Shown: positions 51,703-59,939, counted from the first letter of the stretch. The stretch: DNA of 64,000 bases from Alphaproteobacteria bacterium (GCA_030054135.1 JASGCN010000001.1:18013-82012), one strand, 5' to 3'. The notes: generated by a model not told the origin, from the sequence alone. Numbers and translations: made by a program.

Positions 51703-52440
51703 GTGGGTATGTTATATATCTATACTGGCAATGGAAAAAATGTTCGCACAGAGGCACGAGCATTAATAGAACTGTGCAAAAAAAAGAGGCCCGATGCATT
51801 ATATGAAGTTTTTTCTTCTGTGCGAGAATCTCAATTGACTCTTGGTGAAATAGTGTATGGGACTGGACTTTTTGCAAAGAAACATATTGTTTTTATTGAT
51901 GAGCCAAAAAATTTTGATGGGGAATGGCGTGGGGTATATGACTATCTGTTGGAGCACGCGTCTGTTATTGTGGCTTCAGAGCACATGTTTGTTTTAGTAG
52001 AATCAGAAATTCCTCCAAAGGAGCTTGAAACATTTAAAAAGACAGGAGCAGTCATACACAGTAAAAGTGAAGTAGTTGAAGAAACACGCCCTTCCTTTGC
52101 GCTTGCACAAGCGCTTGCATCAAAAAATAGAAAAGAATTTTTTGTAACTGTGCATCGTATGCGTTTGCGTGGAGAAAATATTGATGCGTGTGTCCCAACA
52201 TTGTATTGGCAGTTGCGGATGTTGTTGCTTGCAAAAAATCATTCAACTGCGCAAGACGCAGGAGTAAAAGAATATCCATTTGCACAGGCAAAAAAATATG
52301 CGCCCTTGTGGAGTAGCAGTGAATTGCTTTCAGTGCATATAGCAATTGATGAAGCAGAACGATTAGAGCGTATGAAACGATTGTCGTTTGTAGATATGTT
52401 TGACTACATTATGCTTTCCATTCCTGTGGCTCGGGTATAG
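51703..52440 (+). CDS. hypothetical protein, possibly DNA polymerase III delta (HolA)-like
   Basis: N-terminus MLYIYTGNG resembles HolA starts, with helical C-terminal domains, but it is shorter than typical HolA. Assigned weakly. Confidence 0.3.
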   Translation: MGMLYIYTGNGKNVRTEARALIELCKKKRPDALYEVFSSVRESQLTLGEIVYGTGLFAKKHIVFIDEPKNFDGEWRGVYDYLLEHASVIVASEHMFVLVESEIPPKELETFKKTGAVIHSKSEVVEETRPSFALAQALASKNRKEFFVTVHRMRLRGENIDACVPTLYWQLRMLLLAKNHSTAQDAGVKEYPFAQAKKYAPLWSSSELLSVHIAIDEAERLERMKRLSFVDMFDYIMLSIPVARV

Positions 52441-52450
52441 CAGTGTCGCG

Positions 52451-52525
52451 TGGCCCCCTCAGCTGGAATCGAACCAACATCAACGGCTTAGAAGTCCGCT
52501 GTTCTATCCATTGAACTATGAGGGG
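52451..52525 (-). tRNA. tRNA-Arg (anticodon TCT), CCA encoded
   Basis: Manual fold of the reverse complement. Acceptor cccctca/tgagggg. D stem gttc/gaac. Anticodon loop cttctaa. T stem gttgg/ccagc with loop ttcgatt. The anticodon stem has an A31-G39 mismatch. Confidence 0.7.
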
Positions 52526-52620
52526 AGAACAATTCTAGTATACTGAATTGTTTTTTATTTTGCTTATAGTGGATATATCTTTTTTTTGTAATTTAGTTTA
52601 CAATATATTTCATAGCGCAT

Positions 52621-52707
52621 GGAAGGATGGCTGAGTGGTTGAAAGCACCCGTCTTGAAAACGGGCAGGCGCGTAAGCGTCTCGAGAGTTCGAATCTCTCT
52701 CCTTCCG
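52621..52707 (+). tRNA. tRNA-Ser (anticodon TGA), long variable arm
   Basis: Acceptor ggaagga/tccttcc. Anticodon stem cccgt/acggg with loop cttgaaa. Long variable arm gcaggcgcgtaagcgtc. T arm gagag-ttcgaat-ctctc. 87 nt. Confidence 0.8.
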
Positions 52708-52760
52708 CAATGTATTCATTGTACAAAGTTCGAATGTATTTTGAGCAAAACCCTAATGAT

Positions 52761-52913
52761 GAATGAATCGTTCCGCCACTGCCTCGCAAAGCCTCGGCAA
52801 CCCCGAAAGAAAAAACACTCCTTACATTTCTGATTTGGTGGGGGTGAAATTTCTTTTGAAAAAGGAAAGGGTGTTTTTCTTTCGGGGTTCTGCCTTCCAA
52901 GTATTCAGGCAGG
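52761..52913 (+). ncRNA. candidate structured ncRNA: ~150-nt long irregular hairpin with central bubble (6S-RNA-like architecture)
   Basis: Outer stem gttccgccac(tgcct)/(aggc)gtggcggaac, ~15 bp. Internal loop of 16 nt on the left and 19 nt on the right. Inner stem ccccgaaagaaaaaacac/gtgtttttctttcgggg, ~17 bp. Apical sub-hairpin. Higher GC than surroundings. The strand is not determined. Confidence 0.4.
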
Positions 52914-52922
52914 TGGCGGAAC

Positions 52923-53082
52923 AATGCGGACGAAGTTTTGGCAAAACTATTTTTTGGGGAAAGGATTTGCCAAAACTTCGGCTCATTTGTTTTTGAATTC
53001 GGATGTCGCAGATGGAAAAGGAGGGGTTTGGGGAGGAATTTTCCATTTGCTCCTCTGATTTCTTTTGGCGAAATTCTGGCAT
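52923..53082 (+). repeat. GC-rich structured repeat element, left copy (contains 15-bp perfect hairpin 52931-52945/52966-52980)
   Basis: Homologous to the inverted copy at 56441-56574. Begins aatgcggacga. Hairpin stem cgaagttttggcaaa/tttgccaaaacttcg with 20-nt loop. Conserved ggaggggtttggggaggaatttt and tttcttttggcgaaattc blocks. Confidence 0.7.
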
Positions 53083-53163
53083 TGAGAAAAGAATGGGAAG
53101 CTGATATAATTCTATTGCAAGTCATAAGAGTATTATATCACTTTCCATACATTATAGTCTACT

Positions 53164-53364
53164 ATGTCCACAATAGGGAAAAACATCAAAAAATTTAGGC
53201 AAGAAAAAGGGCTTTCGCAAGATAAGCTCTCAAAACTTTCTGACCTTTCATTAAATACTGTTGTTAAAATAGAGTTGGACGATACCCCTAACCCTACCAT
53301 TGAGACAATGCAAAGGATCGCGAAAGCCCTTGTAGTATCAGTTGATGATTTACTCAAAAAATAG
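53164..53364 (+). CDS. XRE-family helix-turn-helix regulator, probable controller (C) protein of the R-M cassette
   Basis: 66-aa HTH (KFRQEKGLSQDKLSKLSDLSLNTVVKIE). First gene of the cassette, 2 nt upstream of the methyltransferase gene. Confidence 0.6.
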   Translation: MSTIGKNIKKFRQEKGLSQDKLSKLSDLSLNTVVKIELDDTPNPTIETMQRIAKALVVSVDDLLKK

Positions 53365-53366
53365 TT

Positions 53367-54197
53367 ATGCAAAAAACTACCGAACAAATTAAATACAAAT
53401 CCGTGCAAACAGTTTTCAATAAACCATTTTTTGCTTCCAGCGATGGTGTCATTAAAATTTATCAAAATGATGCCATTAATTTTTTGAAATCATTGCCAGA
53501 TAATAGCGTTGATTTAATAACAACAGACCCTGCATATTCTGGAATGAATCAAATGTTGAAATTAGGAAAAGGTAAAATAATAGGAACCTACAAAGATAAG
53601 GGCGAAAATGGTGCAAAATGGTTTGAGGAATTCCATGATACGGAAAAAAACTATGCCGAATTTTTAAATGAATGTAAAAGAGTTTTAAAGAATGATAGAC
53701 ATATTTATATTATGTTTGACTCCTATTCTTTATTATCTCTTGCACCGATGGTTCGTCAAATTTTTGATGTTAAAAACATTTTATGCTGGGATAAGGCCAA
53801 CATTGGGCTTGGTCATTATTTCAGAAGAAGACACGAGTTTATTCTATTTGCTAGTAAGGGCAAAAGGCACTTAAAATCAAAAGCTATACCAGATGTATGG
53901 AAAATTAAAAGAGTGACTAAAATAAAATATCCAACTCAAAAACCGACAGAAATCTTTGAGTTGATGATTAAAGGAAGTGCCGAAGACGGATTTGTTGTTT
54001 GCGATCCATTTCTAGGAAGCGGTTCGGCGATGATTGCAAGTATAAAAAATAATTGTAATTTTATTGGTTGCGATATTTCTGAAAAATCAATCAATATATC
54101 TAAACAAAGAGCTGAAGAGTTTTTTAAAACTGGAAAAGACATTTTGCAACCCCAATCATTGCTTTCTGATGATAATTTAACCAACAAACTATTTTGA
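53367..54197 (+). CDS. DNA methyltransferase, beta-class amino-MTase (N6-adenine or N4-cytosine)
   Basis: Motif IV-like LITTDPAYSG near the N-terminus. Motif I VVCDPFLGSGSA near the C-terminus. ParB-like/N-MTase domain order typical of beta-class R-M methylases. Confidence 0.7.
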   Translation: MQKTTEQIKYKSVQTVFNKPFFASSDGVIKIYQNDAINFLKSLPDNSVDLITTDPAYSGMNQMLKLGKGKIIGTYKDKGENGAKWFEEFHDTEKNYAEFLNECKRVLKNDRHIYIMFDSYSLLSLAPMVRQIFDVKNILCWDKANIGLGHYFRRRHEFILFASKGKRHLKSKAIPDVWKIKRVTKIKYPTQKPTEIFELMIKGSAEDGFVVCDPFLGSGSAMIASIKNNCNFIGCDISEKSINISKQRAEEFFKTGKDILQPQSLLSDDNLTNKLF

Positions 54198-54198
54198 T

Positions 54199-55866
54199 AT
54201 GGCAAATTTAAATAAATCTAAAACAATTTTTGCCTTCACATCGCCGAGAACTATTGAAAAAATAATTCCCGAGATTCAAATTTTGATTGACGGATATACT
54301 GGCAAAAAATGGAATAGTGAAACACAAGAAGCATTTTTTAATGATCTTTTTGGGTCTGAGTTTTATGAGGGAAAAGAAAAACCTAAAGATATAACCTTTG
54401 CTGCAAGAGATAGAATCACAAGAGCTCCGAAAGCACTTGGCTTTGTTGATTTAAAACCAGTCATAAAATTAACCGAGGTAGGACAGCAATTATTAAGTGG
54501 CAAGAGAATAAATGAAGTAATAGCAAGACAGTTATTAAAATTCCAACTACCGTCGCCATATCATAAAGTACCAGAAGAAAGAGATTTTAATGTTCGTCCA
54601 TATTTAGAATTATTGAGACTTGTCAAAACCATAGGCAACATTTCAAAAACAGAAATAGCCATATTTTTTGTACAATTAACAAACTACAAAAAATTTGATG
54701 AGATAGTCCGAGCGATTAAAGAATATAGATCTGATTATTCGGCACATACAGGAAATAAAAAAGCCTTTATTGATTCAATTTTTACAAAAGAGATATTGAA
54801 AATTTATGAAGAAGATATAGAAAACGAAGAATTTAAAGGCAGGCAAGATAATGATACTACTTTGCAAGATTTTATAGCTAGAAAGAAAAGTAATCATATT
54901 GATTATGCAGACGCTCTTATTCGATATTTGAGAGCAACACAACTAATAACTTTTGATAAAAATTTTAGAATTATAGTTGCTCCGTCTCGTAACGCCGAGG
55001 TGGATTTTATTTTGCAAAATATAGAAAGAAAGGCACTATTATTTAAAAATGAACAGACTTTTAAAACTTATTTATTTAGTTCAAGCACTTTAGAGCTATT
55101 AACTGATAAGAGAGAAAACGTAGAAAAACAACTGAGTAAAATTGGAGTTGGTTATGATGAAAAAGCAACAGTTGAAGATCTAAAAGACTTATTAGAAAAA
55201 ACCGAAACGGATAGAGTTAATCAAGCAATAGCTCAAACAGAAAAAGGACTCAAGGACTACAAAGAGTTTGATGATATTTTAAGTATATTCGATAAGATAG
55301 ATCAAAAAATCGTCCCCGACCCCTCGCTATATTTAGAATGGAACATTTGGCGTTCAATGGTAATGATTAACTATGCAAAAAAAGTGCAAGGTAATTTTAA
55401 ACTTGACTTAGACGGAGTCCCACTTAATACCGCTGGGGCAAGAATGCCCGACATAGAGATAGATTATGAGAATTTTAAAATGATCGTTGAAGTTACGATG
55501 TCGTCAGGACAAAAACAATATGACATGGAGGGCGAACCAGTACCAAGACATTTTGGAAACGCCAAAAGTTCAACAAATAAGCCTGTGTATTGTTTGTTTA
55601 TCGCTCCTAAAATAAGCGAGGGAACACTCGCTCACTTTTTTGCATTAAATCAAAAAGCTCCTAAATTTTACGGTGGACAAACAAACATAGTCCCTATGAA
55701 TTTAGGAAATTTTAGGCAATTTATCACAACTGCAAAAAATAATAATTTTAATAATCCAAACAACTTACAAGGATATTTAGATAACTTATTGAAACAAAAT
55801 AGGACGATTGATGATGAAGCTGTATGGTTTAAAAATATCGAGGAGTCGGTCGGTCAATGGGTGTAA
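54199..55866 (+). CDS. putative restriction endonuclease partner of the adjacent methyltransferase (555 aa)
   Basis: Assigned by context only (C-protein/MTase/large ORF with tight spacing). No catalytic motif recognised confidently. Confidence 0.35.
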   Translation: MANLNKSKTIFAFTSPRTIEKIIPEIQILIDGYTGKKWNSETQEAFFNDLFGSEFYEGKEKPKDITFAARDRITRAPKALGFVDLKPVIKLTEVGQQLLSGKRINEVIARQLLKFQLPSPYHKVPEERDFNVRPYLELLRLVKTIGNISKTEIAIFFVQLTNYKKFDEIVRAIKEYRSDYSAHTGNKKAFIDSIFTKEILKIYEEDIENEEFKGRQDNDTTLQDFIARKKSNHIDYADALIRYLRATQLITFDKNFRIIVAPSRNAEVDFILQNIERKALLFKNEQTFKTYLFSSSTLELLTDKRENVEKQLSKIGVGYDEKATVEDLKDLLEKTETDRVNQAIAQTEKGLKDYKEFDDILSIFDKIDQKIVPDPSLYLEWNIWRSMVMINYAKKVQGNFKLDLDGVPLNTAGARMPDIEIDYENFKMIVEVTMSSGQKQYDMEGEPVPRHFGNAKSSTNKPVYCLFIAPKISEGTLAHFFALNQKAPKFYGGQTNIVPMNLGNFRQFITTAKNNNFNNPNNLQGYLDNLLKQNRTIDDEAVWFKNIEESVGQWV

Positions 55867-56423
55867 GTATCATTTTTATGACGAGTGATTTGATGACAAT
55901 ACTTAGTTTAATAATCGGAATACTCGGTTTAGTTGTGACTTTGGCTGGGACATATTTTGCCTATATTTCGTTTGTAAATCCGATAATAAGGTTCAAAAAA
56001 TATCTGAAAAATCCTGAAAATTGGGAAAAGTTTCAAGGCATAGACGATCATCTTTCTTTTTATCGCCATAAAAAATATCCTAATTTCCAAATTGTTGTAG
56101 ATTGGGATAAAGAACTTGTGGAAAATTTTCACGAGGAGTGGATAAATGACGGTCTTTATCCCGACAAAACAAACAACGCCTCTTATTATGTTCGGTTAGA
56201 GGCTAATGCAATGTTGTTAGAAAAGGAACTGTTTGTTTCTTTGGACGGACATCGATATTTTGTGCCAGTACCAAAAGTTTTGAGTGTAAAAAATGACGAA
56301 AGAGAGTTTTATTACGACAAGCAACAAGTTCAATTAGCAAAAATTGTTGGACGACATCATTTCGAGAAAGATATTTACGATTTTGCCAAAGAGTGTAAAA
56401 AGCCCATAATGATCAAGGAATAG
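55857..56423 (+). CDS. hypothetical protein with N-terminal TM helix, last gene of the cassette
   Basis: 188-aa ORF overlapping the preceding gene by 10 nt. One N-terminal hydrophobic helix. Confidence 0.35.
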   Translation: MGVSIIFMTSDLMTILSLIIGILGLVVTLAGTYFAYISFVNPIIRFKKYLKNPENWEKFQGIDDHLSFYRHKKYPNFQIVVDWDKELVENFHEEWINDGLYPDKTNNASYYVRLEANAMLLEKELFVSLDGHRYFVPVPKVLSVKNDEREFYYDKQQVQLAKIVGRHHFEKDIYDFAKECKKPIMIKE

Positions 56424-56440
56424 TTTTTCAATCTAGTTGC

Positions 56441-56574
56441 CCGAAATTCGCCAAAAGAAAACAGCGGAGCAAGCGGAGAATTCCTCCCCAGACCCCTCCT
56501 GCGGGCGGGAAATCAGCCGAGGCAAGGCGAATCCATTCCCCCGATAAATAGTTTCGCCTTGCCTCGTCCGCATT
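56441..56574 (-). repeat. GC-rich structured repeat element, right copy (inverted; contains 14-bp perfect hairpin 56518-56531/56553-56566)
   Basis: The reverse complement aligns along its length with 52923-53082. Hairpin stem cgaggcaaggcgaa/ttcgccttgcctcg differs from the left copy by paired compensatory changes. The loop is similar. Confidence 0.7.
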
Positions 56575-56676
56575 AGTATTTTTAATCATTTGGATTTTCT
56601 TGGAAAAACATTCGAACTTTGTCCAACAAACACCGCAATGTATTCAGGAAAGAATAATCTGGTGTATTATAAAAAT

Positions 56677-59154
56677 ATGCAATTTAGTCCTGAAATCTTT
56701 GAAAAAAAGTGGCAACAAAAATGGCAAGAGGACAATGTATATCGGACTGAGAATTTTACTGATACACCACACTGCTTTGTGTTGGATATGTTTCCATATC
56801 CATCGGGAAGCTCAATGCATGTGGGACATCCTCGTGGGTATGTGGCAACAGATATTTACAGTCGCTTTAAAAGAATGAATGGATTTAATGTATTGCACCC
56901 AATGGGATGGGATGCGTTTGGTCTCCCTGCGGAAGAAACTGCAATAGAGAATAAAGAATATCCAACAGAGACAGTGGAGAGAAATATTAAAAAATTTAAA
57001 ATTCAGCTCAATATGCTTGGACTTGGGTACGATTGGTCTCGAGAAATTAATACCACCGATCCTGAATATTATGTGCATACGCAAAGAATTTTTCTTGAAT
57101 TTTTTAAACGAGGGCTTGCAACAAATAAAACTATTCCTGTTAATTGGTGTGAAGAATTGGGCACCGTGCTTGCAAACGAAGACATAGTAGACGGAAAAAG
57201 TGAACGCGGAGGACACCCCGTGTTTCAAAAACCAATGCGTCAATGGATTCTTGCGATTACAAAATATGCAGATCGTCTTATTGATGATTTAGATTTATTA
57301 GATCAATGGCCTGAAAAAATAAAAAATGCACAGCGCAACTGGATTGGTAGAAGTGAAGGACATGAATTTTCTTTTTCAACAAGTGCGGGCATTCCTATTT
57401 CCATATACACTACAAAAATTGAAACGCTCCCGGGTGCCACTTGTGTAGTGGTTGCTCCAGACGGAGAACTCACAGAGCAGTTGCTTGCTACCTCTACCAA
57501 CGCACAACAAATTAAAAACTATATAACACAAAGCAGTCAAAAAACAACTTTAGAAAGACAAGCGGTTACAGAAAAAACAGGAGTAATTATTGAAGGCGTT
57601 ACTGCAACAAATCCATTTACAAAAGAACAAATACCAATTATAGTTTCTGATTATGTACTATCTTCATACGGAACAGGAGCAATTATGGCAGTTCCTGCAC
57701 ATGATGAACGCGATAGTGAAATTGCAAAAGTTTTTAATATAGAATCACGCACAGTAATTGAACATGATGTGCTCGTACACGCGCACGCATTAAATGGAAA
57801 AACGGTTGAGGAGGCGCGAACAATCCTTTCTGACATGGTTGATGCAAAAAAACAAAAACGCTACAAAATTCGTGATTGGGTTTTTTCAAGACAGCGATTT
57901 TGGGGTGAGCCGTTTCCTATTGTATGGATTGAAGGAAAAAATAATTATGAATTAGTAGCACAGGGGCCAGTTGGTGCGTGGCTACCAAAAGAAGCAGTGA
58001 TGTATATTCACGATGGAAAAGAACAATACGCCGTACCAGTATTGCCTGAATTTTTACACACAATGCAATTGCCAAAAGTTGCTTCATATCAGCCAACAGG
58101 AACTCTTGAAGGGCCACTTGCGGGCATTGATACATGGGTCAATGTGTTTCTTGATCCAACAACAGGGGCAATTTCACAAAACAAAGAAACTACACACGCA
58201 ATTCCTGCACGAAGAGAAACAAATACTATGCCTCAATGGGCGGGCTCTTCGTGGTATTGGTTTCGATACATGGATACAAAAAACAAAGAACTTCCTTTTT
58301 CAAAACAATCTGTTGATTACTGGGGGCCGGTACACATATATGCAGGAGCAGATCATGCCGTTGCACATTTGATTTATGCACGGTTCTGGCACAAAGTTAT
58401 GCAAGACGCAGGTATGGTTGATTTTCCAGAGCCATTTACACGATTAGAATTTCTTGGATACATTCTTGCACCAGACGGCTCAAAAATATCAAAAAGAAAA
58501 GGGAACAGTCGTTCTCCAGAAGATGTCATCAACACTGTTGGCGCAGATGCATTTCGTATGTATGAAATGTTTATAGGTCCGTTTGAAAAGTCAGCTCCTT
58601 GGAGTGATGATGGGCTTGTTGGATCACGCAGATTTCTTGAACGAGTGTGGCGTCTGCATGAATCAGTAGTTGAAAAAAATGTAGCCACTACAGATGCACA
58701 CGCACTTTCATCAATTCACAAAACAATACAGAAAGTGGGAAACGACATTGAAACATTTAAATTTAATACTGCCGTTTCAAGTATGATGATTTGCTTAAAT
58801 GAAATACAAGATGTAGATATTGCTGTCGCAGATTTTAAACATTTCATTTCTATTCTTGCACCATTTGCACCACACATAACAGAAGAGATGTGGCATGTGA
58901 TGGGACACACATCGTCAATTCATCTCTCTACATGGCCCACAGTAAATAAAAGTGTCATTCGTCAAGAAAGTATCACAGTACCAATCCAAATTAATGGAAA
59001 AGTACGATCACAAATTGATGTACCGATGGATATGCCTGAAAAAGAACTTGAAACACTTGCTCTTGAAGATGCAGCTATTCAAAAACATCTTTCTGGAAAA
59101 ACCACACAAAAAATAATAATAGTACCTAATCGTATCGTGAATATACTGGTGTAA
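56677..59154 (+). CDS. leuS: leucyl-tRNA synthetase
   Basis: HIGH-region P.PSGS.HVGHPRGY. Editing CP1 domain. KMSKS-like KISKRKGN. The start was moved to ATG 56677 (MQFSPEIFEKKWQQKW); the track ORF begins at 56590 inside the repeat element. Confidence 0.9.
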   Translation: MQFSPEIFEKKWQQKWQEDNVYRTENFTDTPHCFVLDMFPYPSGSSMHVGHPRGYVATDIYSRFKRMNGFNVLHPMGWDAFGLPAEETAIENKEYPTETVERNIKKFKIQLNMLGLGYDWSREINTTDPEYYVHTQRIFLEFFKRGLATNKTIPVNWCEELGTVLANEDIVDGKSERGGHPVFQKPMRQWILAITKYADRLIDDLDLLDQWPEKIKNAQRNWIGRSEGHEFSFSTSAGIPISIYTTKIETLPGATCVVVAPDGELTEQLLATSTNAQQIKNYITQSSQKTTLERQAVTEKTGVIIEGVTATNPFTKEQIPIIVSDYVLSSYGTGAIMAVPAHDERDSEIAKVFNIESRTVIEHDVLVHAHALNGKTVEEARTILSDMVDAKKQKRYKIRDWVFSRQRFWGEPFPIVWIEGKNNYELVAQGPVGAWLPKEAVMYIHDGKEQYAVPVLPEFLHTMQLPKVASYQPTGTLEGPLAGIDTWVNVFLDPTTGAISQNKETTHAIPARRETNTMPQWAGSSWYWFRYMDTKNKELPFSKQSVDYWGPVHIYAGADHAVAHLIYARFWHKVMQDAGMVDFPEPFTRLEFLGYILAPDGSKISKRKGNSRSPEDVINTVGADAFRMYEMFIGPFEKSAPWSDDGLVGSRRFLERVWRLHESVVEKNVATTDAHALSSIHKTIQKVGNDIETFKFNTAVSSMMICLNEIQDVDIAVADFKHFISILAPFAPHITEEMWHVMGHTSSIHLSTWPTVNKSVIRQESITVPIQINGKVRSQIDVPMDMPEKELETLALEDAAIQKHLSGKTTQKIIIVPNRIVNILV

Positions 59155-59434
59155 TGATATATTGTGAATATGAAGGAACAAAGAAAAAAAAATAAGACAA
59201 CACAAGATCCTGCATTAAAAAATGCTCGCAGAATAGAGTTATTGGAAAAAAACCATTTAGGAATTATAACAGAAATAGAAAAAAATGAACTCAAAATAGT
59301 AGTATTTTTTATGTTCGTATAGGTTCGTCAATTTCCAGAAAATAGTTAAACAATTTTTTATCTTTCCAAAATAAACGGAGCAATGTGTTTGCAAAACACC
59401 TTCAATTTTTTCACATCTCATTATAAACGAGCAC

Positions 59435-59589
59435 GATATATCTCTCACTTCCGTTATTTGAGCCACGAGCGAAGCATTCGGTTTATATTAGAAAACTGTA
59501 ACTGTTTGAGCGTAGCGAGTTTTACAGTTTTCAATATAAGAGAATGCAAAAGCGAGTGTTAGGCGAAAATTGGAAGCGAGAGATATATC
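59435..59589. repeat. 155-bp element bracketed by 18-bp imperfect inverted repeats (gatatatctctcacttcc / ggaagcgagagatatatc), abutting tRNA-Arg
   Basis: 12-bp perfect IR extended to 17/18. Internal 10-bp hairpin aaaactgtaa/ttacagtttt. Ends 7 nt from the tRNA 3' end. Confidence 0.5.
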
Positions 59590-59595
59590 TGCGAG

Positions 59596-59670
59596 TGGCC
59601 TCCCCACCAGGAATCGAACCTGGATCGTACGCTCCGCAAGCGTATGTTCTATCCGTTGAACTACAGGGAG
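59596..59670 (-). tRNA. tRNA-Arg (anticodon GCG), CCA encoded
   Basis: Manual fold. Acceptor ctccctg/tggggag (two G-U). D arm gttcaacggatagaac. Anticodon stem tacgc/gcgta with loop ttgcgga. T arm ccagg-ttcgatt-cctgg. Confidence 0.65.
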
Positions 59671-59672
59671 AT

Positions 59673-59939
59673 CTATGTACCTATTTTTGCAATAGTGGCA
59701 AGTAACCGTGATTTTTTACGGGCACCGTTATTTGCCTTGATGATGCCTCTTTTCACTGCTTTGTCTATCGCTTGTTGCGCAAGAGTGAACAATTTTTTTG
59801 CTTCAGTTTTATTTTTTTCAGTAACAGCTTTTTTTACAGCATGCATAGTGTCTTTCATTGCTCTATCTTTTCGTATATTGAATACGCGCTTATTTTTTGA
59901 AGCACGGAGTGCTTTTTTTGCTGACAATATTATTGGCAT
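59673..59939 (-). CDS. rpsT: 30S ribosomal protein S20
   Basis: MPIILSAKKALRASKNKRVFNIRK...KRGIIKANNGARKKSRL. S20 pattern and size (88 aa). Confidence 0.8.
   Translation of the reverse strand: MPIILSAKKALRASKNKRVFNIRKDRAMKDTMHAVKKAVTEKNKTEAKKLFTLAQQAIDKAVKRGIIKANNGARKKSRLLATIAKIGT

Follow-up and report, generated by a model that had tools for sequence, protein, structure and literature searches.

We analysed a 64,000-nucleotide (nt) stretch of DNA deposited as Alphaproteobacteria bacterium (GCA_030054135.1 JASGCN010000001.1:18013-82012; hereafter the window, in which positions are counted from its first letter), where a restriction-modification (R-M) cassette is bracketed by two homologous inverted elements, here called arms, beside a pair of tRNA genes and upstream of leuS. 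This arrangement had been noted in an earlier sequence-only reading and stands, and that reading's proposal of a mobile or mobilisable unit is still the best one, with an arm family that brackets many cargos in many Patescibacteria. The arm tips are probably attachment (att) half-sites of a large serine recombinase (LSR), a gene that accompanies the arms in most informative relatives.

The cassette between tRNA-Ser and leuS

Four co-oriented genes lie between tRNA-Ser and leuS, and Pfam searches with the window's proteins, together with a transmembrane (TM) segment, match the gene content described earlier (methyltransferase, endonuclease, TM protein and helix-turn-helix (HTH) protein). The first encodes a 66-aa XRE/HTH_3 regulator (53164-53364, plus strand; HTH_3, 5e-13) and is followed by a beta-class N6/N4 DNA methyltransferase (MTase; 53367-54197, plus strand; N6_N4_Mtase, 1e-30), whose nearest relatives among solved structures and in NCBIfam are CcrM-like with a score under the family cut-off; by homology, m6A methylation at GANTC/GAGTC may be guessed for this MTase and the BspD6I-like endonuclease that follows it. 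Next is a 555-aa AlwI-family type IIS restriction endonuclease (REase; 54199-55866, plus strand; RE_AlwI, 9e-54) with PDB matches to N.BspD6I (9e-53) and the R.BspD6I small subunit (2e-21), the two enzymes forming the cargo, and then a 188-aa protein with an N-terminal TM segment (55857-56423, plus strand) that matched no Pfam or NCBIfam family. A promoter-like site, TTGAGA-17-TATAAT (53082-53110, plus strand; 11/12 with TG), is the top promoter match of the region and begins at the inner end of the left arm; it is overlapped by an operator-like 21-nt inverted repeat (53096-53116 / 53126-53146, plus strand) 5' of the HTH gene. To judge by their sequence, promoter and palindrome suggest an autoregulated operon. 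On the left of the cassette are tRNA-Arg(UCU) (52451-52525, minus strand), which lies upstream of leuS, and tRNA-Ser(UGA) (52621-52708, plus strand), both called by ARAGORN and Rfam; half-site spacing (see below) marks the latter as the putative integration target and source of an attB-type half-site.

The inverted homology of the two arms is real and far beyond chance. A core of 63 nt (53019-53081 against 56438-56500, inverted) is 87% identical (blastn, E=5e-17) and a second block of 45 nt (52719-52763 against 56582-56626) is 80% identical (blastn, E=1e-5). Once a 153-nt module present only on the left is spliced out, 52719-53082 aligns with 56438-56632. The limits first proposed, 52923-53082 and 56441-56574, are correct as far as they go but incomplete, since the arms reach 52719-53082 and 56438-56636. 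A covariance model (CM) built from relatives finds just two copies in the 64 kb, at 141.7 bits (left) and 83.3 bits (right), and the motifs quoted in the sequence-only reading likewise occur at just these two places. Both arms have a G+C content of 0.43-0.48, against about 0.27-0.40 for the cargo.

The left arm (52719-53082, plus strand) is of a long form and is 83-95% identical to the arms of five other loci (L117, L118, L027, L122 and L075). From its tip inwards it comprises a P-type half-site resembling a tRNA 3' end (pseudo-tRNA, 52719-52745), a palindromic module of 153 nt (module X, 52770-52922), the motif AATGCGGACGA (52923-52933), hairpin 1 (stems 52931-52945 / 52966-52980), hairpin 2 (stems 53008-53019 / 53039-53050) with the conserved loop GGAGGGGTTTGGGGAGGAA (53020-53038), and a T-rich tail that runs up to 53082. 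Module X is an imperfect palindrome (DNA fold -39 kcal/mol, z=-6.5) and within the window occurs in this arm only. Its reading as a foreign, nested miniature inverted-repeat transposable element (MITE) was ruled out by the recurrence of the module in long-form arms of L051, L125, L048 and others; a palindromic module of ~155 nt is an optional part of such arms (L051:1330-1482, L125:1164-1318, L048:672-828).

The right arm (56438-56636, minus strand) is a hybrid of the short form. It carries a pseudo-tRNA P-type half-site at its tip (56608-56636, spacing 26 nt), hairpin 1 (stems 56518-56537 / 56547-56566) and the conserved loop (56481-56499). Hairpin 2 is unable to form here because a short-type 5' strand faces a long-type 3' strand. 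Short-type arms of L099, L029 and L023, from metagenome-assembled genomes (MAGs) of Saccharibacteria and Kaiserbacteria, match the outer part of this arm (56480-56640) at 88-92% identity, and the part inside the loop is of the long type, like the left arm, so that the whole arm is chimeric. The two window arms are 80-87% alike, compared with >99% in most pairs of relatives; given this divergence, the long module on the left only and the chimeric right arm, the window copy seems old or reworked.

A tRNA-like or transfer-messenger RNA (tmRNA) reading of the arms was rejected, ARAGORN detecting neither there; the TTCGAA of the arms is a relic or mimic of a T-loop and not a folded arm. At the Rfam 15 gathering score the window yielded tRNAs only, and 52400-56800 gave no credible match at E<=5; the arms fall outside the RNA families described in Rfam 15.

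An arm family with variable cargo

The sequence-only reading had proposed a search for more copies of the element, and these proved numerous. An exact scan with the loop 19-mer GGAGGGGTNTGGGGAGGAA, using one genome per species, returned at least 120 loci, mostly in Patescibacteria MAGs of many classes; carriers among the matches listed include Saccharibacteria, Paceibacteria, Nomurabacteria, Kaiserbacteria, Levybacteria and Woesebacteria as well as Dojkabacteria, Doudnabacteria, Moranbacteria, Uhrbacteria and Peribacteria. Over the listed loci, nhmmer found 134 arm copies, just four of them without the exact 19-mer, although the constancy of the loop is in part a product of the scan, which was made with that very 19-mer. 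Arm pairs in plus/minus orientation, 1.4-6.9 kb apart, occur in about 20 of the at least 120 loci listed. Within a pair the arms are nearly or wholly identical (141/141, 161/161, 188/188 and 340/342 positions in four examples), and between loci they diverge greatly. Many copies lie at contig ends, as would be expected of repeats that break assemblies, and this offers an explanation for the frequent assembly breaks near these loci. Hits of the 19-mer in Planctomycetia, Alistipes/Tidjanibacter, cyanobacteria and phage were discarded as unrelated sequence, as were all 22 hits in a scan of viral contigs (unrelated coding or G-rich sequence), and a phage collection held no DNA match to the arm.

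Read toward the cargo, the arm consists of the tip GCGGTRTTYRTTGKACAAAGTTCGAA, the optional ~155-nt palindromic module, AATGCGGAC, hairpin 1, CGGCTGATT, hairpin 2 with the 19-mer in its loop, and the T-rich tail. In 29 distinct copies, the stems pair in 97.5% of cells (64% in column shuffles and <=51% with slid partners), 19 of the 21 stem pairs vary on both sides, and the loops of both hairpins contain the motif YCTGGGGARRGRAT. The hairpins are a conserved structural feature of one large subfamily. G-U pairs fill ~1% of cells and the two strands show no asymmetry, so that an RNA is not specifically indicated; the pattern of covariation fits a structure with equal complementarity on either DNA strand. 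The hairpins may serve as accessory sites in recombination or its regulation, as insulators or as terminators. The arm of L048 is a hybrid resembling the window's right arm, with its breakpoint in the conserved loop, which makes this loop a recurrent breakpoint; such breakpoints would arise most simply by homologous exchange in the longest identical stretch.

Two further observations concern arm structure. In L109:100-1560, one of the four copies without the exact 19-mer, an insertion of ~1.4 kb encoding a 385-aa transposase sits precisely within the 19-nt hairpin 2 loop and splits the arm, which suggests an insertion sequence (IS) targeting the conserved loop; a reading of the protein sequence assigns it as IS110-family-like. 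Some arms have a third hairpin at their inner end, with alternative stems GTGCCAGTTGAAAACTGGCGC / GTATTTTGCAAAGCAAAATGC followed by GCC(A/G)C (L051:1630-1665, L051:4150-4110, L015, L022, L024, L028, L070, L091 and L111), and the two arms of the L051 pair hold different versions of it.

An XRE-type HTH gene of 65-73 aa lies 66-260 nt after the 19-mer, on the strand of the arm, in 25 copies, and accompanies exactly one arm per pair. Because it adjoins one arm whatever the cargo, we regard it as the backbone gene of the element family. It was also recovered from the recombinase side, at 3 of 4 loci. The first window gene had been described as C-protein-like: the HTH assignment holds (HTH_3), but a role specific to R-M control is not supported, the gene being part of a backbone found beside any cargo. 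Its homologues hold the same arm-proximal position before cargos other than R-M, and with the operator-like palindrome upstream of the window gene, the HTH protein may control whatever gene follows.

Beyond the HTH gene the cargo is unrelated between loci and largely defence-related. R-M genes are carried by L021 (Eco57I-type MTase and AccI REase), L055, L111 (Type III R-M) and L122; other cargos are a diversity-generating retroelement (DGR) with reverse transcriptases and bAvd (L041), a ThsB-type TIR protein (L116), an ABC transporter (L050), and aminotransferase-like and membrane proteins. Two loci share parts of the window copy: L111 keeps its frame, from the HTH gene to an 88% identical homologue of the 188-aa TM protein and then the arm, with Type III R-M inside, and L117 has the left arm and HTH gene at 86% identity.

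A large serine recombinase, tRNA targets and shared cores

In relatives, the HTH-side arm is directly bordered on its outer side by the gene for an LSR of 500-540 aa (Resolvase, Recombinase and Zn_ribbon_recom domains), which is transcribed away from the arm. This holds for 10 of 13 informative pairs, that is, those with a flank long enough to tell whether an LSR adjoins; L051, L075 and the window are the LSR-less pairs. Of 14 complete LSR genes, 12 are convergent with a tRNA gene, at which they end (Ser, Leu, Ala, Gln or Gly), and tRNA-Ser(UGA), the isoacceptor of the window, adjoins the recombinase in L118 and L067 too. The LSR has an inverted repeat of its own (b; 80-195 nt, 82-100% identity), one copy of which includes the 3' end of the LSR gene. 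The nearest NCBIfam families are CcrB and XisF, CcrB being the best at a score under its cut-off, and identity to the integrases of the phage collection is <=27%. Adjacency of arms to tRNA genes is not a general rule, since in full elements the recombinase stands between tRNA and arm.

Searching from the recombinase side returned >7000 clusters at E<1e-40, of which the top 120 are >=79% identical. These 120 come from MAGs named as different candidate phyla, many of them on contigs of 1.7-2.1 kb, roughly the length that the recombinase and its repeats would take up; abundance and short contigs would fit both recent horizontal spread and the breaking of assemblies at repeats. Four long contigs were picked from this side, blind to the arm motif. 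The b repeat surrounds the LSR in all four, and in three a divergent HTH gene and cargo lie within a second inverted repeat. Two of these three cassettes (L151 and L152) have arms without the hairpin motif, and the layout is therefore more general than the hairpins. At L154:8787-10575, the recombinase lies in its own 195-nt inverted repeat, with no HTH/cargo cassette and no detectable tRNA adjoining, and may be a solo recombinase unit. At L125:5997, L030 and L152:10503, the recombinases end at tRNA-like sequence left uncalled by ARAGORN, which could represent tRNA genes with introns or another kind of target; group I introns have been reported in tRNA genes of Patescibacteria (PMC13011429).

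Followed in the sense of the tRNA, the order in a full element is tRNA, b - LSR (antisense) - b', arm - HTH - cargo - arm', flank. In the window the order is tRNA-Ser, arm - HTH - R-M - TM - arm' and the leuS flank, with the b - LSR - b' block missing. The three junctions of the full element (tRNA/b, the inverted arm/b, and arm/flank) have a common core of 4-7 nt, which is the 3' end of the tRNA and differs between targets (Ser, CCGCCA; Leu, GCACCA; Ala, CCACA). In the window, a perfect 14-nt direct repeat, CCGCAATGTATTCA, stands at the two outer junctions: the left copy (52705-52718, plus strand; candidate att core of attL) comprises the 3' end of tRNA-Ser and 10 further nt, and the right copy (56633-56646, plus strand; 100% identical) spans the arm/flank junction (candidate attR). 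The first 4 nt of the repeat are the tip of the right arm, and on the left its last 6 nt enter the tip of the left arm.

The geometry of these junctions ties arm tips to tRNA genes. TTCGAA and the end of the core are 21 nt apart in 7 of 7 tRNAs (in the window tRNA-Ser, from the T-loop TTCGAA to the end of its CCGC core), and in arm tips 26 nt apart, which holds for 7 of 8 elements. At its outer end, each arm has ~26 nt that are a decayed or pseudo tRNA 3' end, with TTCGAA set 5 bp further from the core. In A118-type (LI) serine integrases, the pseudo-palindromic attP places the motif bound by the zinc-ribbon domain 5 bp further away from the crossover than attB does (PMC3783163). By analogy, TTCGAA would be the motif recognised by the LSR here. 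For the b half-sites and native flanks, a consistent motif position was not found. In most loci the b repeat has TTCCGAA/TTCGAA ~15-16 nt from the core (L116:2822-2865, L067:1091-1134, L151:8860-8903, L152:8861-8904, L023:290-333), nearer by ~5 bp than the 21 nt of the tRNA and by 10 bp than the 26 nt of the arm tip; L048 and L118 are exceptions.

Proposed mechanism, alternatives and known systems

We consider it probable that the segment 52709-56636 (3.9 kb) is an integrated cassette of a Patescibacteria-wide, arm-bounded family whose tips are att half-sites for the LSR, and that this copy is non-autonomous or a relic. The arm tip would be an attP-type and the tRNA 3' end an attB-type half-site. 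In a circular form of the cassette, the joined arm tips would make up a pseudo-palindromic attP of about 50 bp, which the LSR would recombine with the tRNA 3' end into attL (tRNA/arm) and attR (arm/flank). Both products would keep a short common core, in the window CCGCAATGTATTCA; the predicted empty site is ...GAGAGTTCGAATCTCTCTCCTTCCGCAATGTATTCAGGAAAGAATAATCTGGTG... and the predicted circle junction ...CATTCGAACTTTGTCCAACAAACACCGCAATGTATTCATTGTACAAAGTTCGAATG... More speculatively, a palindromic crossover dinucleotide in the CG/GC of the core might allow recombination without polarity, which would permit inverted junctions and loss of the recombinase block; a link between such dinucleotides and loss of polarity is attributed to references within PMC3783163. 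The data show the anatomy, family membership, hairpin covariation, the backbone HTH gene, the linkage to the LSR and to tRNA 3' ends, the common cores and the +5 bp geometry; movement of the cassette by the LSR, the circular intermediate, the position of the crossover and the window copy's need for recombinase in trans are what we infer. With no LSR in the 64 kb, diverged arms and a hybrid right arm, the window copy either depends on recombinase in trans or is an immobilised relic.

Several results weigh against this account. Neither an empty site nor a circular junction was found for the window or any family member, so that movement itself is inferred and not observed. In metagenome contigs, the exact predicted junction CCTTCCGCAATGTATTCAGG had a single hit, a chance match on a high-GC contig without a tRNA; relatives of LeuS at <=70% identity are non-syntenic, the closest ones (69-74% identical) have unrelated upstream genes and neither tRNA nor arms, and contigs encoding the identical LeuS or REase all show the same filled locus. 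A tblastn search with the family LSR found no homologue in the 64-kb window. The arms, at 130-400 nt, are far longer than any serine-integrase att site, and att function leaves their near-perfect identity within an element unaccounted for. Full-length relatives retain the internal inverted arm/b junction, which would not be expected if a circle with one attP simply integrated. The 14-nt core exceeds what a serine recombinase needs, and its last 6 nt are also those of the usual arm tip TATTCATTGTAC; part of the repeat may be coincidence or the trace of an earlier event, and because of this match the true core is perhaps the 8-nt CCGCAATG. Lastly, the outer half of attB, in the native flank, has no recognisable motif.

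The main live rival, which we nevertheless hold to be rather unlikely, is that the arms are structured modules (insulators, terminators or RNA), that cassettes are swapped by homologous recombination after DNA uptake, and that the LSR belongs to a separate element at the tRNA hotspot. It would account for two strongly covarying hairpins followed by T-rich tracts, and for hybrid arms in the window and L048 that break in the 19-nt loop as homologous exchange predicts. Also in its favour, the architecture is retained in L151 and L152 although their arms are without the hairpin motif, L154 has the recombinase and its own repeat with the cassette absent, and L051, L075 and the window have arm pairs without an LSR. 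Against this rival, the tip mimics a tRNA 3' end at the attP-type +5 bp spacing, its core tracks the target tRNA, for which an insulator would have no reason, and cassette and recombinase are adjacent in fixed orientation in 10 of the 13 informative cases. The arms also lack an Rfam match, their hairpins, with loops of 19-24 nt, are left uncalled by a simple terminator scan, and a role in RNA only is at odds with the near absence of G-U pairing and of strand asymmetry.

A phase-variable segment, in which the recombinase would flip the HTH-R-M block in the manner of Gin and the G-segment or of Hin, is suggested by bounding inverted repeats that are nearly identical within each relative and by a serine recombinase gene directly outside one of them. 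We regard this as very improbable, because the HTH gene is on the LSR side in all seven pairs with both visible and no flipped orientation was seen, and because the cargo's own promoter lies directly inside the arm, so that orientation would switch nothing. The recombinase, moreover, is of the large integrase type (nearest CcrB and XisF) and not a small invertase, and the window arms are just 80-87% alike, with hairpin 2 of the right arm broken.

Least credible to us is a composite or non-autonomous DDE transposon, or MITE-captured genes, with terminal inverted repeats mobilised in trans and the 14-nt repeat as target-site duplication, as the sequence-only reading had in part envisaged. Long terminal inverted repeats, a cassette without an internal recombinase and the perfect direct repeat at the outer junctions have this look, and R-M units with long inverted repeats and short target duplications figure among the reported cases in PMC2853133. 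Against this, eight near-perfect pairs in relatives have no target-site duplication. No transposase is linked to the family, the sole one being that of the IS110-family insertion in the L109 arm, and the enzyme accompanying the relatives is an LSR. Taken singly, an arm lacks terminal inverted repeats, and the direct repeat takes in the tRNA 3' end while the tip varies with the target tRNA, which is the behaviour of an att site.

A bolder proposal, for which we see an outside chance, is that the arms are an undescribed class of structured DNA, in which the two hairpins with YCTGGGGARRGRAT loops and the internal inverted att junction would define a new serine-recombinase system. Its free form could be a small circle in which long inverted repeats centred on the att core split the recombinase from the HTH gene and cargo (compare the 2-micron plasmid), or the att site could lie on a cruciform; such a system would be the main vehicle of defence-gene exchange throughout the Patescibacteria, with LSR-less cassettes riding along.

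The integrated-cassette reading that we prefer has precedents in Acinetobacter pdif modules, where recombinase-less cargo lies between inverted sites, target duplications are absent and the recombinase is encoded elsewhere. Those sites are 28-bp XerC/D sites on plasmids; here, serine-type half-sites lie at the tips of long structured arms on chromosomes. Staphylococcal cassette chromosome (SCC) elements, including ccr-less and defence cassettes (PMC11470126), likewise place R-M or other defence cargo in a single conserved host gene, at its 3' end, and have large serine recombinases (CcrB being the best NCBIfam hit of the family LSR, under its cut-off), recombinase-less cassettes at a shared site with tandem accretion, and direct and inverted repeats at their ends. 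The SCC target, however, is rlmH and not a tRNA 3' end, and the family described here differs in its 130-400-nt near-perfect inverted arms with conserved hairpins, a recombinase with its own 80-195-nt repeat, the retained internal inverted arm/b junction, Patescibacteria hosts, and an LSR that is at most 27% identical to phage integrases. With A118/LI integrases (PMC3783163) the family would share a pseudo-palindromic attP and the 5-bp shift (TTCGAA at 26 against 21 nt), whereas binding and crossover are here predictions from sequence, the motif occurs in one presumed attB half (the tRNA) only, and the sites are embedded in much longer repeats.

Genomic islands at tRNA genes and tycheposons with cargo-only satellites (10.1101/2020.12.28.424599; Islander, PMC4383910) are similar in integrating at tRNA 3' ends, in leaving a displaced pseudo-3'-end at the far boundary, and in comprising small cargo units and recombinase-less derivatives. 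They differ in relying mostly on tyrosine integrases and in having direct-repeat bounds, in contrast to the inverted pseudo-tRNA tips at both ends and the LSR found here. The survey of Furuta, Abe and Kobayashi (2010; PMC2853133) describes R-M genes in long inverted repeats and a unit of R-M and integrase in a tRNA gene, categories that suit the window's R-M genes between long inverted arms beside a tRNA gene; it names neither an enzyme nor a family of repeats for its inverted-repeat cases, in contrast to the single conserved repeat family with many non-R-M cargos reported here. LSR integration, recombinase-less SCC-type cassettes (PMC11470126), tRNA islands and R-M genes in long inverted repeats (PMC2853133) are thus already known. 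In the literature covered, which is incomplete and leaves novelty unproven, we found no description of a Patescibacteria-wide family, of the double inverted-repeat layout or of hairpin arms, and the arm/recombinase family is apparently undescribed.

To our knowledge, Patescibacteria (the Candidate Phyla Radiation, CPR), with their tiny genomes, have few described types of mobile element, and the route by which they exchange defence genes is largely obscure. The window cassette leads to a very abundant and conserved system of recombinase and arms that carries R-M, Thoeris-like TIR and DGR cargo beside tRNA genes in many CPR classes, and so offers a concrete, testable route of horizontal transfer as well as natural serine-recombinase att sites of unusual architecture. 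For the window itself, the R-M genes are best seen as accessory cargo in a probably non-autonomous cassette and leuS as an intact neighbour.

That gene (56677-59154, plus strand; identified by Pfam) is a flanking host gene outside the element. Its start had been thought to be embedded in the right arm. The ATG at 56677 stands 41 nt beyond the arm and is taken as the start because close homologues are mostly 825 aa long, as is P0001, which is 100% identical; the TTG at 56590 is a mere mechanical start of the open reading frame. An independent Logan assembly (L001, from SRR23378605) is 100% identical to 52981-59836 of the window over 6856 bp; its contig stops in hairpin 1 of the left arm, where the repeat breaks that assembly, and its gene caller places the leuS start at an ATG in the right direct repeat (56638; 838 aa). 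The identical LeuS (P0001) is deposited as 'MAG: Alphaproteobacteria bacterium', although its close relatives and the carriers of the arm family are all Patescibacteria. Several arm-bearing contigs are binned as Gammaproteobacteria, Bdellovibrionales, Nitrospirota or Bacteroidetes, and such labels probably reflect mislabelled or misbinned CPR contigs.

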